Source of the DNA: Candidatus Aenigmatarchaeota archaeon
GTDB lineage: Archaea > Aenigmatarchaeota > Aenigmatarchaeia > GW2011-AR5 > JAHLMP01
Direction: 5' to 3'
Assembly: GCA_039000375.1 (NCBI GenBank)
Contig: JAWBTS010000005.1
Span: forward strand, 1,149-25,148
DNA length: 24,000 bases
Below, one piece after another: positions 7,710-16,844 of this stretch. A program made the position numbers and the translations under genes. The notes beneath the pieces were generated by a model. It worked only from the letters and a program-made list of their open reading frames with translations, searched no databases and was not told where the DNA came from. Every line of letters begins with the position of its first letter. Positions within the stretch are counted from its first letter, which is position 1.

Positions 7710-8450
7710 TTGGTGAAACTTGTTTCTCTGCCAATTGAAGGCAAAGAATATATTGGAATTGAATTAGATGGGAAAGAAGGAAGCGGGATTGAGGGTTATT
7801 CGTTTGCGAGATTATTCAATCCACAAACAAATGAGTCAATTTATCTAATAAAATCAACCGGAAGTCCGACAGTTTGCTTAAAGCAATTACCACCAACTGC
7901 TGGTGGCTTACCTTATGAAGAGTTTTCCACCAAAAATTTAGAAAATGAATATATTGTTGAAACCTCAGAATGGAATTTCCTAGGTAAAGAAAATATAACC
8001 TTGCAATCTGGAAAGAAAATCGAGGTATATAAATTTAGAAGAGAAACTACTTTTGAAGGTAATAAAATTGTCAATGAACTTTGGCTCTCAGGAGAAGTTC
8101 CAACTTATCTTGTATTAGATAGTGAAACCATTGGTGATAAAAGAAGGGTGACTAATTTAACTAATTTTGGAATGGATGGCGGACTTCCAAACTTTAGTGA
8201 TAACGATCTTAAAGCTTGCAGCGAGGGAGTTCCAGAAATTCCTGGTCTTCCTAAAGAAGCAGCAAAAATGTATTGTCAAACTGACGAAGATTGTGCTTGT
8301 GGAGTTGATAAGGAAACAGGTAAATGTGCTATTGGAAATAAAAGATATATTGATACATCGAGGCAATGTCCAGATTTTTGCACTGGTATTGCTGGTCACT
8401 TAGGAATAAAGTGCGTTAATAATATTTGTATGGCAATTCCTATCCAATAA
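7710..8450 (+). CDS. Extracellular-type protein with a Cys-rich C-terminal module; no signal peptide as tracked
   Basis: 246-aa ORF with a TTG start in the track. The C-terminus CQTDEDCACGVDKETGKCAIGNKRYIDTSRQCPDFCTGIAGHLGIKCVNNICM is Cys-rich. The frame is open upstream to the TGA at 7611. Confidence 0.7.
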   Translation: MVKLVSLPIEGKEYIGIELDGKEGSGIEGYSFARLFNPQTNESIYLIKSTGSPTVCLKQLPPTAGGLPYEEFSTKNLENEYIVETSEWNFLGKENITLQSGKKIEVYKFRRETTFEGNKIVNELWLSGEVPTYLVLDSETIGDKRRVTNLTNFGMDGGLPNFSDNDLKACSEGVPEIPGLPKEAAKMYCQTDEDCACGVDKETGKCAIGNKRYIDTSRQCPDFCTGIAGHLGIKCVNNICMAIPIQ

Positions 8451-8494: not shown

Positions 8495-8809
8495 ATGGAA
8501 AATTTTGTTTTACGAGAATTGTTGTCTCTCGAGAACTGGAAATTAAATTATTGGAGAACTACTGGAAAGTCTGAAATAGATTTTGTTTTAAGAAAGGAGG
8601 ATATTATAATTCCAGTTGAAGTTAAACTAAGTGGAGAAAAGTTAGGGAAAAGTTTTTATAGTTTTTTAAATTCCTATAAACCAGAAAAAGCAATTGTAGT
8701 AACTTTGGATAAGTTTAAAAAAGAAAAGGTTGGAAAAACCATAGTTTATTGGGTTCCTATATTTATTTTTAAAGAATCCTCAGAAAGTTTGGCTCTATAT
8801 CGCTTATAA
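8495..8809 (+). pseudogene. C-terminal remnant of an AAA+ ATPase of the AAA_14/DUF4143 family
   Basis: ENFVLRELL...WKLNYWRTTGKSEIDFVL...IIPVEVK is the DUF4143 C-terminal nuclease-like module. The roughly 300-aa ATPase part is absent, with a stop 4 codons upstream of the ATG. Confidence 0.6.
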
Positions 8810-9105
8810 GGTTGTAATTCGAATAATGTTAGAATTTAAATGACCGGATAGCAAGATTCATATTACATTTTTGCATGAAAGTTAGAATTAGATTAGTTTA
8901 TGATTGAAATCTCGCTAATTTTTATGGCATTATCTCTATTAAGTTTGACTCTATCTCTATTGTTTTTTATTAATATCATCATGCTTATTTTCTCGCGTTT
9001 AAGCAAGAAATAAACCTTTGAGCGATAAATAAAAATAGTCCAGTTTCTTACAAGAAAATGATTTAATTCTAAGGACCTACTTTTAATCCATTTCAATATA
9101 AACAA

Positions 9106-9210
9106 TGGGCCCGGAAGGATTTGAACCCTCGACCTGCTGGTCCGAAGCATCGGCACGATTTAAAATTTCTCAAGCGTTCAGCCGCTCTATCCAAGCTGAG
9201 CTACGGGCCC
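9106..9210 (-). tRNA. tRNA-Arg(UCG) with a 30-nt non-canonical intron between positions 30 and 31
   Basis: Reverse complement: GGGCCCG UA GCUC AGCUUGGAUA GAGC G GCUG[intron]G CUUCGGA CCAGC AGGUC GAGGG UUCAAAU CCUUC CGGGCCC A. Removing 9149-9178 restores a 5-bp anticodon stem and a loop with U33 and G37. The mature RNA is 75 nt. Confidence 0.75.
9149..9178 (-). other. tRNA-Arg intron (BHB)
   Basis: A central 4-bp helix CGGC/GCCG is flanked by 3-nt bulges UG|A and AU|G. The outer helix is GAG/CUU and the inner helix is ACG/CGU. Confidence 0.65.
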
Positions 9211-9665: not shown

Positions 9666-10178
9666 GTGTTAATTATGGTTTGGGCATCAACAAAGCTAAC
9701 AATATGGGATTATATTTATAGGGATGTAAAAACAATAAGTTTTGAGTATAAAGGAAAAAGTCCAGAATTATTATATAAAAAAGTAAAAGAGCTTTTAGAA
9801 GTTGTTTATGGAATTCAACCAGGAGGATTTCAAGAAAAAACATATTCGATAAGTAAGACAGATACTGGAGAGGAGTTTGAAGCAGAGTGGGAAGCAATAA
9901 GGCAGTTAGATGACTTTAGTTATTTCAAAATAGACATAACAATAAAAGGATTTTCTTCTGGTGGAGTTGGAAAAGTAAAAATAACCTATCGTCCAGTTTT
10001 AATGACTGAATATCCACAAGATACATATTGGCAGCAAAGCATATTTTATGAAATTCTAAGAAGATTGTGGCATGCAATATTTTATAAGAAAAAAAGAAAC
10101 GAGTATTTTGAGCTTGGCAGAGAGCTTACAGAGAAGTTTGAAAGAGAATTAAAAGATTATATGGAACAGTTGAAATGA
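9666..10178 (+). CDS. Hypothetical protein, paralogue A of a tandem pair
   Basis: 170 aa; an in-frame ATG at 9675 is a likelier start. It shares its architecture and the C-terminal motif FYKKKRNEYFELGRE with the next gene (FYYKRRRVYFERGRS). Confidence 0.7.
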   Translation: MLIMVWASTKLTIWDYIYRDVKTISFEYKGKSPELLYKKVKELLEVVYGIQPGGFQEKTYSISKTDTGEEFEAEWEAIRQLDDFSYFKIDITIKGFSSGGVGKVKITYRPVLMTEYPQDTYWQQSIFYEILRRLWHAIFYKKKRNEYFELGRELTEKFERELKDYMEQLK

Positions 10179-10225
10179 AATTGTAAATATTTCAATCAAA
10201 AATTTTATAAAATTGGTGTTGAGAA

Positions 10226-10723
10226 ATGCCATCATTAACAATTGTTGATAATTTACTTTATCCAAGAGATAAGTTGGTTATAAAATTTTCAGGAAATAAT
10301 GTAAAAGAGATCTGTAATATGATTAGGCCAATACTAGAAAAGGTTTTGCAAGTAGAGGCAAAAGATACTTATGAGAGAATACTAAAATGGGATTCTACAG
10401 AGAATCCAAGAAGCTTTTATAACGAGTGGACAACAAACAAAGAAGAGGATAAATGGACAGTTTATTCATTTAAAATAATTGTGCAAGGAAAGCAAGATGT
10501 TAATACAAATAAAGGTAATGTGACTATAGAAATATATGCATGGCTAAAAACATCTTATAATTATTCAAACTTTATTCAAAGATTATTTTGGATTTTTTAT
10601 AACAAGTTTTTTTACTATAAAAGAAGAAGAGTTTATTTTGAGCGCGGTAGATCTCTTGTTTTCGAAGTTCGTGATGCATTCATGAATGCTCTTAAGATAC
10701 CAAAGCTTGAAGAGAGTGAATAA
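10226..10723 (+). CDS. Hypothetical protein, paralogue B of a tandem pair
   Basis: 165 aa with a GGTG SD upstream. Colinear similarity to 9666-10178: a mid-protein W/beta-rich segment, I-x-I-x-G, then a basic YKRRR-YFE-GR helix. Confidence 0.7.
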   Translation: MPSLTIVDNLLYPRDKLVIKFSGNNVKEICNMIRPILEKVLQVEAKDTYERILKWDSTENPRSFYNEWTTNKEEDKWTVYSFKIIVQGKQDVNTNKGNVTIEIYAWLKTSYNYSNFIQRLFWIFYNKFFYYKRRRVYFERGRSLVFEVRDAFMNALKIPKLEESE

Positions 10724-10932
10724 AGATTCATTAGATAATGGATTAAAGATTAAATAAAAGAAAATATCAATTAATTTTGGAAGATGATTGTTGATAAATA
10801 ATTTGGAAAAATAACATTAGGGAATAGCTTAGGAAAAGTAAGAAAATTAGAAGAAAGAATAATGAAGTGCGCGAGAATAATAAAAAATAGAAATTAAGAT
10901 TTTTCCATAATTAAGATAAAAGATGATAAAAA

Positions 10933-11439
10933 ATGGTTTTTGGCTGGATAAAATCGAAAATTAAAAGAGAAAAAGAGGATGAATATGAAAGAATAAAGCA
11001 AAGCATTCTATTAAGGACTAGCGAACCTTCTAGCTCGGTTCATTTTGAAGAGGAAAAACCATTGCTTCTAGAGAGATTTAGAAAAGATGAAATAAAGAGA
11101 GAGGAGCCACTAGAACCATGGGAAAGAGAAAGGTTAGAAAGAGAAGGAATAAGACCAGAGTGGAAGCCTTTTAGAGAGAGAAGGGAGGAAGGAATAACAA
11201 GAGAAAAAGAGCTTGAGCCAATGCTTACGAGAAGGGAGGAAGAACCTTTTAGAAGAAAAGAGATTTATGAAAGTAGCTTAGAACCAAGAGCAATCGAAAG
11301 CTATAGAGGTTATGAAGATATGGAAAGAATGAATAATAGATTAAGATTTATAGAAGAGCAGCTTGCAACAATTAAAGCGCAAAACGAGGTTTTGATAGAA
11401 AAGTTAAGAAACCTAGAAAGAAGATTGGGATATGTTTGA
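10933..11439 (+). CDS. Highly charged E/R/K/P-rich protein with a C-terminal coiled coil (hypothetical)
   Basis: 168 aa with reiterated EP..R.E segments (EEPLEPWERERLEREGIRPEWKPFRERREE...). The C-terminus is a heptad-like RLRFIEEQLATIKAQNEVLIEKLRNLERRL. Confidence 0.6.
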   Translation: MVFGWIKSKIKREKEDEYERIKQSILLRTSEPSSSVHFEEEKPLLLERFRKDEIKREEPLEPWERERLEREGIRPEWKPFRERREEGITREKELEPMLTRREEEPFRRKEIYESSLEPRAIESYRGYEDMERMNNRLRFIEEQLATIKAQNEVLIEKLRNLERRLGYV

Positions 11440-11476: not shown

Positions 11477-12175
11477 TCAATATCTTAAAATCGATGTTAA
11501 CTCTTCTTTTTTATCTTCTCTCTCGCTACCTATCTTATTTTTAAAACATTCAATGGAATCTCTTCCCTGAATTTCAATAACATATAATTTATTTTTCTTA
11601 TCTTTATTTGCTATGCAATAAACCCTTGCTTTTATGCTTTCTATGTCAAGCATTCTTTGAATTAGCTTCAATAAATTAAAAGAATAGCTGCTTGCTCTTA
11701 TTCTAATCTTTCTCTTCTTTCTATTTTCCTTTTTGTCATAATAATAAACAACATTAAAAAAGCCTTTTGCATCAAAAAACCCGCGAAGAAACATTATTCT
11801 AAGATTAGAATATTCATCTAAGATTGTTATATTTTCTAATGCTATACTTTCTTTTATCTCTTCTAAGTTTTGAATCCATGCTCTTATATCTTGAAAAATT
11901 TTCAAATAATTTTCTGAAAGATTTGCAAAAACTAAATAATAGATTTTATCCTTTCTTCTCTTTTCCTTTATCCTAACATTATTGGAAATTTTTTCCAGTT
12001 TATTTTTTACGATTTTTGCTAAATCTTCATCTGAGGTTTCTAAGGTTAGCCTTCCATCTTTTATGTTGCCTCTATTACAAAATACGCCAAGTATATAAAA
12101 TAAATCTTCTCTATTCTCAAGTATTTTTTTCTCTTGCTTTTTATTATGTTCAAAAGTATCTTCATTCATCTTCAT
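11477..12175 (-). CDS. Free-standing LAGLIDADG homing-endonuclease-like protein with two motifs, the first degenerate
   Basis: The second motif IMFLRGFFDAKGFF is a close LAGLIDADG match. The first, LFYILGVFCNRGNI, keeps the helix pattern but has N/R where the acidic residue is expected. About 230 aa fits a monomeric double-motif enzyme. Confidence 0.55.
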   Translation of the reverse strand: MKMNEDTFEHNKKQEKKILENREDLFYILGVFCNRGNIKDGRLTLETSDEDLAKIVKNKLEKISNNVRIKEKRRKDKIYYLVFANLSENYLKIFQDIRAWIQNLEEIKESIALENITILDEYSNLRIMFLRGFFDAKGFFNVVYYYDKKENRKKRKIRIRASSYSFNLLKLIQRMLDIESIKARVYCIANKDKKNKLYVIEIQGRDSIECFKNKIGSEREDKKEELTSILRY

Positions 12176-15354: not shown

Positions 15355-15999
15355 CTAAGGTAATATCCTAACAACTTCATAATAAGTTACATCTCCTTCA
15401 TTATCTACTATTGCCCATAGCATTCTAGCTCTGATATTATGGGCAAGCCTCACAGCCCTTGAAAGCTCTTGGAAAGAGCACGTATAATCTTCAGGCACGC
15501 AAAAAACAACCCATTTTGTATGCTCTTTTTGCGATTTAGGGCCGCGCTTTAATTCTACACCTCTTTCATAGCATCTAAAGTCGCAGCCAAACTTAAATCC
15601 TGTTTTTACTAAAAGGCCTCGGTCTCTCAAATCTTCATAAACACGATATCTATGGGAAAATCTTTTATCTATGCTACAAGCTATTTTATATAATTCCATA
15701 AAGCTTAACGCTTTTTTAGATTTTTTTGAGATTTTTATTTTTTTGTCTTTTTCTTCTATCTTTTCTGCGAGAAATATCTCTATTCTTCCTTTTTTTAGGA
15801 GGTAAAGAGCTTCTACAAGCGAAAGCTCTATTCTATCATCTAAAATCTTTCCATAATAACCTGGCAAATAAATCTCTTCTTTTCTATCAAAGGCAATAAC
15901 CTTTTCACCAAGAAGATAGCATTTTGGAAGATCTTTATTTTTTTCATTTTTCTTTTCTTTTATTTTATTCTTTTCAAATTTATCGATATCCATGAGCAT
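15355..15999 (-). CDS. endA: tRNA-splicing endonuclease
   Basis: LSLVEALYLL, YRVYEDLRDRGLLVKTGFKFGCDFRCYERG, KEHTKWVV and AVRLAHNIRARMLWAIVDNEGDVTYY are colinear with the short archaeal EndA (M. jannaschii type). It carries a Lys-rich insertion EKIEEKDKKIKISKKSKK. Confidence 0.85.
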   Translation of the reverse strand: MLMDIDKFEKNKIKEKKNEKNKDLPKCYLLGEKVIAFDRKEEIYLPGYYGKILDDRIELSLVEALYLLKKGRIEIFLAEKIEEKDKKIKISKKSKKALSFMELYKIACSIDKRFSHRYRVYEDLRDRGLLVKTGFKFGCDFRCYERGVELKRGPKSQKEHTKWVVFCVPEDYTCSFQELSRAVRLAHNIRARMLWAIVDNEGDVTYYEVVRILP

Positions 16000-16516: not shown

Positions 16517-16590
16517 TGGGATGGGTGGGATTTGAACCCACGACACCACGGTCTTCAGCCGTGCGCTCTCCCAGGCTGAGCTACCATCCC
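16517..16590 (-). tRNA. tRNA-Phe(GAA), intronless
   Basis: Reverse complement: GGGAUGG UA GCUC AGCCUGGGA GAGC G CACGG CUGAAGA CCGUG GUGUC GUGGG UUCAAAU CCCAC CCAUCCC A. Confidence 0.95.
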
Positions 16591-16657: not shown

Positions 16658-16844
16658 CGCCCTTGGCAGGATTTTTGCGATTTTCACATCGAAAATCTCT
16701 TTTAACTATTATTTTTTTATTCTTAATAATTTTACAATTTCTCCTCTTGCTTCAAATTCATTCCCAAAACATGATGTGAAAATCGCTTCGAACCTGCGAC
16801 CTTCTGGTTAACAGCCAGACGCTCTACCACTGAGCTACAAGGGC
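16658..16844 (-). tRNA. tRNA-Asn(GUU) with a 115-nt intron in the T-loop (59/60)
   Basis: GCCCUUG UA GCUC AGUGGUA GAGC G UCUGG CUGUUAA CCAGA AGGUC GCAGG UUCGAA[115 nt]U CCUGC CAAGGGC G. All stems are complementary and the mature RNA is 72 nt. Confidence 0.8.
16672..16786 (-). other. tRNA-Asn T-loop intron
   Basis: Closed by a 13-14 bp helix: 16677-16690 pairs with 16773-16786. The BHB register has a central helix UUCG/CAAA (one C.A mismatch) and bulges AA|G and AA|U. Confidence 0.7.

Follow-up and report, generated by a model that had tools for sequence, protein, structure and literature searches.

Archaeal tRNA genes can be interrupted by introns at non-canonical positions, which carry a bulge-helix-bulge (BHB) motif with a central helix H and flanking helices h and h' (hBHBh'), are spliced by proteins and can lie outside the anticodon loop, with 30/31 among the listed sites (Marck & Grosjean 2003; Sugahara et al. 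2008; PMC4090602). The known non-canonical positions are 20/21, 22/23, 25/26, 29/30, 30/31, 45/46, 53/54, 56/57 and 59/60 (Yoshihisa review, PMC4090602), and 30/31 is also the point at which the tRNA-Lys(CUU) genes of N. equitans and Staphylothermus are split (PMC4090602). In the DPANN superphylum, disrupted tRNAs have already been described, as have predicted tRNA sets that are incomplete (PMC5829648, PMC3239211). One member of this superphylum, ARMAN-2 (Ca. Micrarchaeum), has many non-canonical introns, including a 13-nt intron of the hBH type at 59/60 of pre-tRNA-Cys(GCA); this position is a known hotspot, and the ARMAN-2 intron found there has been cleaved in vitro (PMC3239211). Here we analyzed a 24,000-nt stretch of DNA from a Candidatus Aenigmatarchaeota archaeon (the window), the minus strand of which holds a tRNA-Arg(UCG) gene that is very probably functional and spliced to remove a 30-nt BHB intron at 30/31. 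In contrast to the described non-canonical introns, the host belongs to the Aenigmatarchaeota rather than to the Crenarchaeota or Nanoarchaeota, and the interrupted tRNA is Arg(UCG). Precedents exist for the mechanism, the position and the host superphylum; what is new is the gene, the lineage and the comparative support. We found no published description of this intron in the literature covered, which did not extend to the supplementary tRNA tables of the ARMAN paper.

Gene structure and predicted intron

The gene runs from G1 at 9210 to the discriminator, A73, at 9106. The Rfam tRNA model RF00005 covers all 105 nt (47.7 bits, E=1.6e-07), and its alignment contains 39 inserted nucleotides against nine expected central anticodon-arm positions. 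The unspliced gene has intact acceptor, D and T arms and an anticodon arm that is not legal. ARAGORN in its default mode did not detect a gene at 9106-9210; archaeal-mode tRNAscan-SE and SPLITS are built to find interrupted tRNA genes of this kind. The gene and the predicted parts of its precursor are as follows.

9106 to 9210, minus strand: tRNA-Arg(UCG), complete gene of 105 nt, CCA not encoded (Rfam RF00005; ARAGORN on the spliced product)
9179 to 9210, minus strand: 5' exon, tRNA positions 1-30, GGGCCCGTAGCTCAGCTTGGATAGAGCGGCTG
9149 to 9178, minus strand: predicted 30-nt BHB intron at 30/31, cuts at 9179/9178 and 9149/9148; site kept in six orthologues
9106 to 9148, minus strand: 3' exon, tRNA positions 31-73, GCTTCGGACCAGCAGGTCGAGGGTTCAAATCCTTCCGGGCCCA
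9143 to 9145, minus strand: anticodon UCG (ARAGORN on the spliced product)
9185 to 9187, minus strand: helix h, 5' strand GAG (tRNA G22 A23 G24, 3' strand of the D-stem), which can pair with 9145-9147; invariant in orthologues
9145 to 9147, minus strand: helix h, 3' strand CUU (tRNA C32 U33 U34), predicted to pair with 9185-9187
9181 to 9184, minus strand: central helix H, 5' strand CGGC (tRNA C25 G26 G27 C28), predicted to pair with 9151-9154; the pair between tRNA position 27 and the intron covaries
9151 to 9154, minus strand: central helix H, 3' strand GCCG (intron), predicted to pair with 9181-9184
9178 to 9180, minus strand: 5' bulge UG/A, predicted cut after the second nucleotide from the geometry; UG/A, CG/A or CG/U in orthologues
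9148 to 9150, minus strand: 3' bulge AU/G, predicted cut after the second nucleotide from the geometry; AA/G in orthologues
9175 to 9177, minus strand: helix h', 5' strand ACG (intron), predicted to pair with 9155-9157; all three pairs covary
9155 to 9157, minus strand: helix h', 3' strand CGU (intron), predicted to pair with 9175-9177

The intron, which occupies precursor positions 33-62, reads AACGCUUGAGAAAUUUUAAAUCGUGCCGAU. Its removal brings GCUG next to G-CUUCGGA-CCAGC, so that 9179 is joined to 9148 in the predicted spliced sequence …GCUG-GCUUCGGA…, and ARAGORN identified the resulting 75-nt product as tRNA-Arg(tcg). The cloverleaf that it reported has a 7-bp acceptor stem, a 4-bp D stem, a 5-bp anticodon stem and a 5-bp T stem, and position 33 is U and position 37 a purine; the anticodon arm consists of the stem GCUGG/CCAGC and the loop C32 U33 U34 C35 G36 G37 A38. 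We enumerated all 20 possible 30-nt deletions that leave a 75-nt product. Only the deletion of 9149-9178 gave a 5-bp stem together with a loop containing U33 and a purine at 37, and the same deletion was the only one of the 20 with a full BHB at its cuts (H 4/4, h 3/3, h' 3/3). The D-loop reads AGCUUGGAUA and contains A20, and the anticodon contributes C35. Both nucleotides match Arg identity elements known from bacteria, a resemblance read from sequence that does not imply a role with the archaeal arginyl-tRNA synthetase.

All four pairs of the central helix are G-C, and the two 3-nt bulges (UGA and AUG) lie on opposite strands. Helix h has three pairs, one of them G.U, and h' also has three, against the two to three or more expected of flanking helices. 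Part of this motif is borrowed from the mature tRNA, with the 3' strand of the D-stem (G22 A23 G24 C25) used by h and by the first pair of H. The geometry, the cut after the second bulge nucleotide and the enzyme family are those of the canonical intron at 37/38. There, however, the anticodon stem serves as h and the cloverleaf stays intact, whereas at 30/31 both H and h have to be assembled with nucleotides of the D-stem 3' strand and the upper anticodon stem, and the precursor would not be a cloverleaf.

When all pairwise combinations of cut sites in the precursor were scanned, a single complete 3-4-3 motif was found, at the proposed cuts. A full motif arose at the fixed junctions in 4.2e-4 of 200,000 shuffles of the intron, and the window as a whole contained 413 full motifs in approximately 4.3 million site pairs, a background of approximately 1e-4 each. 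A first-pass annotation of this DNA had placed a gene without a legal anticodon arm at these coordinates, which are correct when read on the minus strand, and had proposed the intron at 30/31, the anticodon UCG in a perfect 5-bp arm with U33 and G37, A20 in the D-loop and a BHB (CGGC/GCCG, UG/A, AU/G, 3-bp flanks) that borrows the D-stem; our analysis reproduced each of these elements.

The proposed pathway would begin with the pairing of precursor nucleotides G22-C28, which span the D-stem 3' strand and the upper part of the anticodon stem, with C32-U34 and the 3' end of the intron. A strict hBHBh' would form, in which two 3-nt bulges enclose the 4-bp helix CGGC/GCCG, and the archaeal splicing endonuclease would cut after the second nucleotide of each bulge (9179/9178 and 9149/9148). 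An RNA ligase (RtcB in archaea) would then join the exons, and the product would refold into a normal cloverleaf with the anticodon UCG. No RNA ligase gene was identified among the open reading frames (ORFs) of the window that were scanned.

Orthologous genes and intron turnover

In metagenomes, a scan with the D-arm, CUUCGGA and the T-arm as anchors gave nine loci, to which we added one genome match, L029. A separate genome scan with a pattern ending in CTTCGGA retrieved 120 loci, of which L019 and L029 were usable here. Most of the others were bacterial; CTTCGGA is also present in the T-stem/acceptor region of bacterial tRNA-Arg, which was the source of the irrelevant matches. The loci collapse to six distinct tRNA-Arg(UCG) genes from genomes and metagenomes, each with an insertion of 12-31 nt exactly at 30/31:

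L121: 29-nt intron at 30/31
L127: 31-nt intron at 30/31
L124, identical to L128: 29-nt intron at 30/31
L129: 28-nt intron at 30/31
L122, identical to L125 and L029: 13-nt intron at 30/31
L123: 12-nt intron at 30/31

In all six orthologues, H is 4/4 and h is 3/3 at the junction that restores the tRNA, and this junction is also the site of the top-scoring BHB in each precursor, apart from one tie in L121. In an alignment anchored on the junctions, 96.7% of cells were paired, compared with 28-50% when the 3' partners were slid by one to three columns. The covariation score was 0.50 for this set of six sequences, which had been retrieved with a pattern fixing the bases of h, and at most 0.10 in the slid-register controls; none of 500 shuffles gave as much pairing or as much covariation. 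In H, the pair that tRNA position 27 forms with the intron is G-C in two orthologues, U-A in two and U.G in two, with position 27 also covarying with position 43 of the mature anticodon stem. In h', each of the three pairs shows changes in both strands. The BHB motif is conserved with compensatory changes in the orthologues.

Four of the retrieved loci (L029, L122, L123 and L125, with a G+C content of 28-32%) share neighbor genes of the window tRNA-Arg. Amino acid identity in these syntenic loci is 81-82% for the ORF at 9666-10178 and 75-77% for the ORF at 10226-10723, with a weaker 35-37% for the ORF at 10933-11439, and L123 also shares an S-layer protein neighbor. Because of these shared neighbors we regard the four as the same locus in sister genomes. 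Their introns at 30/31 are only 12-13 nt long (A-AAAAUU-GCCG-AA), which makes h' impossible and places them in the hBH type. The sister copies (the 2151-2270 region of L122, L123, L029 and L125) have in addition a second intron, 31-32 nt long, at 59/60, with H 4/4 and the T-stem as h; the window copy has none there. Removal of both introns from the sister copies gave a valid tRNA-Arg(UCG).

A further gene, on the minus strand of L019 (an Aenigmatarchaeota metagenome-assembled genome, MAG, with 49% G+C; match 506-571), has a 32-nt intron at 29/30 with H 4/4, an h' of 11 bp and no h (HBh' type). It also contains a second insertion of approximately 35 nt near positions 37-39, where the BHB is weak and poorly defined and junctions at 37/38, 38/39 and 39/40 give the same product. 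With both insertions removed, this gene too yields tRNA-Arg(UCG). Judging from these sequences, intron length, number and exact position change quickly while the gene appears to stay functional. The turnover is fast among close relatives, with 30 nt as opposed to 12-13 nt at 30/31 and a T-loop intron in the sisters only, and the intron lies at 29/30 in the other Aenigmatarchaeota gene.

The 12-13-nt hBH introns of the sister loci resemble the intron of ARMAN-2 pre-tRNA-Cys(GCA), and introns at 59/60 are likewise shared between ARMAN-2, the tRNA-Arg genes of L122 and L123 and a tRNA-Asn gene of the window described below. The window differs from ARMAN-2 in that its splicing enzyme is a 214-amino acid (aa) alpha-type protein rather than the three-unit epsilon2 enzyme, and in that its motif at 30/31 is strict rather than relaxed. 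As a separate observation, three loci from Micrarchaeota and others (L060, L107 and L113) contain tRNA-Arg(UCU) genes in which the T-loop is broken by a short insertion, for example GGTTCAAAT-AAATTCTTCGGAATTTTGAGA-CTCCCGCC; these are probably further introns of the 59/60 type.

Splicing endonucleases and a second interrupted tRNA gene

A gene for the splicing endonuclease EndA lies 6 kb from the tRNA-Arg gene, and a second interrupted tRNA gene is found in the window:

15355 to 15999, minus strand: EndA, 214 aa, alpha-type, with a NEQ/L3-type loop GVELKRGPKSQKEH (PF02778 and PF01974; PDB 1a79 and 3iey)
16658 to 16844, minus strand: tRNA-Asn(GUU) with a predicted 115-nt intron at 59/60 in the T-loop (16672 to 16786), removed by joining 16787 to 16671

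The EndA protein scored 110 bits with TIGR00324 (cut-off 59.6). Its best PDB match was 1a79 (M. jannaschii alpha4, E=1e-33, residues 29-213), followed by 3iey (the N. equitans alpha subunit). A 212-aa annotated protein of a Candidatus Aenigmatarchaeota MAG, for which the public annotation starts two residues later, matches it with 100% identity, and nearly all named homologues of the window protein are labelled Candidatus Aenigmatarchaeota. Relative to M. jannaschii, the window protein has a 6-residue insertion within GVELKRGPKSQKEH just before the catalytic His. This segment aligns without gaps to GVIPKKGKRSEREH of N. equitans (residues 90-98) and is absent from M. jannaschii. The NEQ-specific loop has been defined as N. 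equitans residues 90-98, with K93, K94, K96 and R97 (Hirata et al. 2012, PMC3488258), and the L3 loop has been linked to more disrupted tRNA genes in DPANN (PMC3488258, PMC5829648). With its N-terminal and catalytic domains, its 6-residue basic insertion near the catalytic His and a length within the ~180-215 aa expected of such single proteins, the window protein resembles the DPANN alpha4-type EndA enzymes that carry an L3 loop (PMC5829648, PMC3488258). The window enzyme, which is known from its sequence, differs from these in that its family has Ala at the site of the catalytic Lys.

This substitution affects the catalytic center. In the window protein Tyr144 and His160 are conserved, and the canonical Lys position is Ala191, in the context R-A-R instead of R-K-K, which means that the Tyr-His-Lys triad is incomplete. 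We take the catalytic triad of M. jannaschii EndA to be Tyr115/His125/Lys156. This numbering agrees with the alignment offsets and with the Y/H/K triads of ARMAN-2 and M. kandleri (PMC3488258, PMC5829648). Ala occupies the Lys position in 121/121 members of the EndA family (the window protein and 120 homologues). The residue that follows is R in 98 and K in 22 of 123 aligned sequences, which include two K-K references, and it is basic in 120 of the 121 family sequences. Because Ala at this position is conserved across the family, the pattern is more suggestive of a basic residue that has shifted than of decay, and the shifted residue may substitute for the catalytic Lys. The first-pass annotation had identified the ORF at 15355-15999 as EndA and had suggested the recombinant protein for an in vitro cleavage test. 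The protein is indeed an EndA, with both domains and matches to 1a79 and 3iey, but with Ala in place of the catalytic Lys a negative result from the protein alone would not refute splicing.

A different enzyme accompanies the orthologous gene of L124, where the ORF at 9694-10887 on the plus strand encodes a 397-aa three-unit EndA with a full-length match to the epsilon2 enzyme of ARMAN-2 (4fz2, E=4.5e-104). In the 2018 literature covered, this architecture is described only from Micrarchaeum and Mancarchaeum (PMC5829648). We considered whether the epsilon2-like EndA marks L124 as a member of the Micrarchaeota and rejected this as unsupported, as the named homologues of the protein (60-64% identity) are mostly labelled Aenigmatarchaeota; more than 1,380 such proteins were retrieved at E<=1e-40. 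If the MAG labels are correct, the Aenigmatarchaeota contain both EndA architectures, and the Arg intron at 30/31 is found alongside both. The intron could be an old, vertically inherited feature of the Aenigmatarchaeota that was kept through a change of EndA architecture, with a 214-aa alpha-type L3 enzyme in the window lineage and a 397-aa epsilon-like enzyme in that of L124, a scenario that we put forward tentatively and hold to be possible but doubtful.

Rfam detected only the 5' part of the tRNA-Asn gene (its third match, 16789-16844), and default ARAGORN missed the gene. The spliced product is 72 nt long and was accepted by ARAGORN. The BHB at these junctions is relaxed, with three of four pairs in H (one C.A mismatch), the 5-bp T-stem as h, and a 13-bp helix GCGAUUUUCACAUC / GAUGUGAAAAUCGC as h'. 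The top match of a strict BHB scan at this locus restores no tRNA and was discarded; the junction at 59/60 was found only when the scan was tied to the mature sequence. Because tRNA-Asn would be functional only after removal of the 59/60 intron, the organism must splice non-canonical introns. We also considered C/D-box small RNAs inside the two introns and rejected them, as an intron of 30 nt is too small to hold one and inspection by eye of the 115-nt Asn intron showed neither C nor D boxes. The tRNA-Phe gene at 16517-16590 is uninterrupted.

The window therefore offers one strict and one relaxed natural substrate next to a cognate EndA with an L3 loop. If the window EndA family were to cut both the strict motif (Arg 30/31) and relaxed motifs (the 12-13-nt hBH introns and Asn 59/60) as a homo-oligomer, broad specificity of an alpha4-type enzyme with a rewired active site would be demonstrated. 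Broad specificity of alpha4-type EndA has been raised only as 'growing evidence' (Kaneta et al. 2018, PMC5829648).

Alternative explanations and annotation of the locus

A junction that is unique, the geometry of the motif, its conservation and covariation among orthologues and the presence of an EndA gene together support a functional tRNA-Arg(UCG) gene with a spliced BHB intron at 30/31. Several points weigh against this interpretation. The minimum free energy structure of the whole precursor (-39.6 kcal/mol) is not tRNA-like, and enforcing the BHB gives -33.6 kcal/mol, above a cloverleaf-like fold that keeps the D-stem (-35.2 kcal/mol). Nearest-neighbor folding of the precursor assigned the H pairs probabilities of at most 0.02, and local folding favored a hairpin, GAGCG/CGCUU, at -7.6 as opposed to -3.8 for the BHB core; this hairpin occurs in the window only and is absent from the orthologues. 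Because thermodynamic folding does not recover the BHB, it adds no positive evidence. Helix h (GAG/CUU) is invariant and its bases were fixed by the search pattern, so that it gains no support from covariation. The search patterns also demanded an insertion, so that intron-less orthologues were left out by design and the set does not yield an intron frequency. Ala191 makes the catalytic competence of the window EndA alone less than certain. Finally, we infer from sequence the transcription, cleavage, ligation and aminoacylation of tRNA-Arg(UCG), as well as the EndA assembly that would cut it and any benefit of the intron.

These points bear in different ways on the alternatives. An intron one nucleotide further 3' (31/32, 9148-9177) is what ARAGORN reports with -i: it calls tRNA-Arg(tcg), gives the intron as 'acgcttgagaaattttaaatcgtgccgatg' and leaves a stem of 4 bp followed by an A.C pair, the mature A31.C39 mismatch. 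This mode models introns in the anticodon loop only, and at 31/32 there is no BHB (H 0/4, h 0; pair 33/63) and the stem is mismatched, whereas 30/31 combines a perfect stem with a full BHB and is conserved in all orthologues; we consider the shifted junction hardly credible. It is also very unlikely that the locus is a decaying tRNA pseudogene with a random 30-bp insertion, neither expressed nor spliced. Such a pseudogene would agree with the failure of standard tRNA finders and with a transcription that is so far a prediction, and the 24 kb of genome in view leave room elsewhere for a second, intron-less tRNA-Arg(UCG), which again counts against a functional gene here. A random insertion, however, would not build a complete BHB at the restoring junction (p approximately 1e-4 to 4e-4), all other stems of the tRNA-Arg are intact, and the site and its BHB are kept with compensatory changes in six orthologues, including four syntenic loci.

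The last alternative accepts splicing at 30/31 and concerns the motif that is recognized, which would consist only of H and h' (relaxed HBh' or bulge-helix-loop type). The D-stem would not melt beyond C25, and h, between G22-G24 and C32-U34, would be unformed or unneeded. The invariance of h leaves that helix unsupported and its formation costs three D-stem pairs. The 29/30 intron of L019, with H 4/4 and an 11-bp h', lacks h altogether, and the loop of the window EndA has been tied to cleavage of relaxed motifs (PMC5829648). On the other hand, the 12-13-nt introns of the sister loci, being without h', would depend on h and H, which suggests that h matters there; in the window all three helices can form, and the geometry makes H use C25 in any case. 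We judge a motif of H and h' alone to be unlikely, and prefer the complete hBHBh' at 30/31.

Read as a spliced gene, the locus is a well-supported case of a BHB at a non-canonical position that is confirmed by comparative data rather than by a single sequence. It leaves the current understanding of archaeal tRNA splicing unchanged. Its consequence is for annotation: default finders miss the gene, and the genome would then seem to be without a decoder for CGA/CGG codons. The tRNA sets of DPANN archaea look incomplete because interrupted genes of this kind escape detection (Kaneta et al. 2018, PMC5829648).

Several minor features surround the gene. A mechanical ORF of 87 aa on the minus strand (8893-9156) overlaps it and is best ignored. 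A reading of promoter and terminator elements in its flanks was dropped, as TATA-like strings are everywhere in a genome with 30% G+C. Just downstream of the tRNA 3' end, a 104-aa ORF on the plus strand (8495-8809) aligns with DUF4143 in the C-terminal tail only (positions 110-160 of the 160 in the profile) and has a weak Mrr-like match; this ORF and the preceding one at 7710-8450, also on the plus strand, may be pieces of one larger gene that has been split. Farther away, the minus-strand ORF at 11477-12175 encodes a free-standing LAGLIDADG-domain protein of 232 aa (PF14528, PF00961). It sits between protein genes, outside any rRNA or tRNA, and Rfam reported no group I intron at E<=1. A syntenic counterpart of this ORF is found in L029 and L125, where it is very divergent (26% identity).

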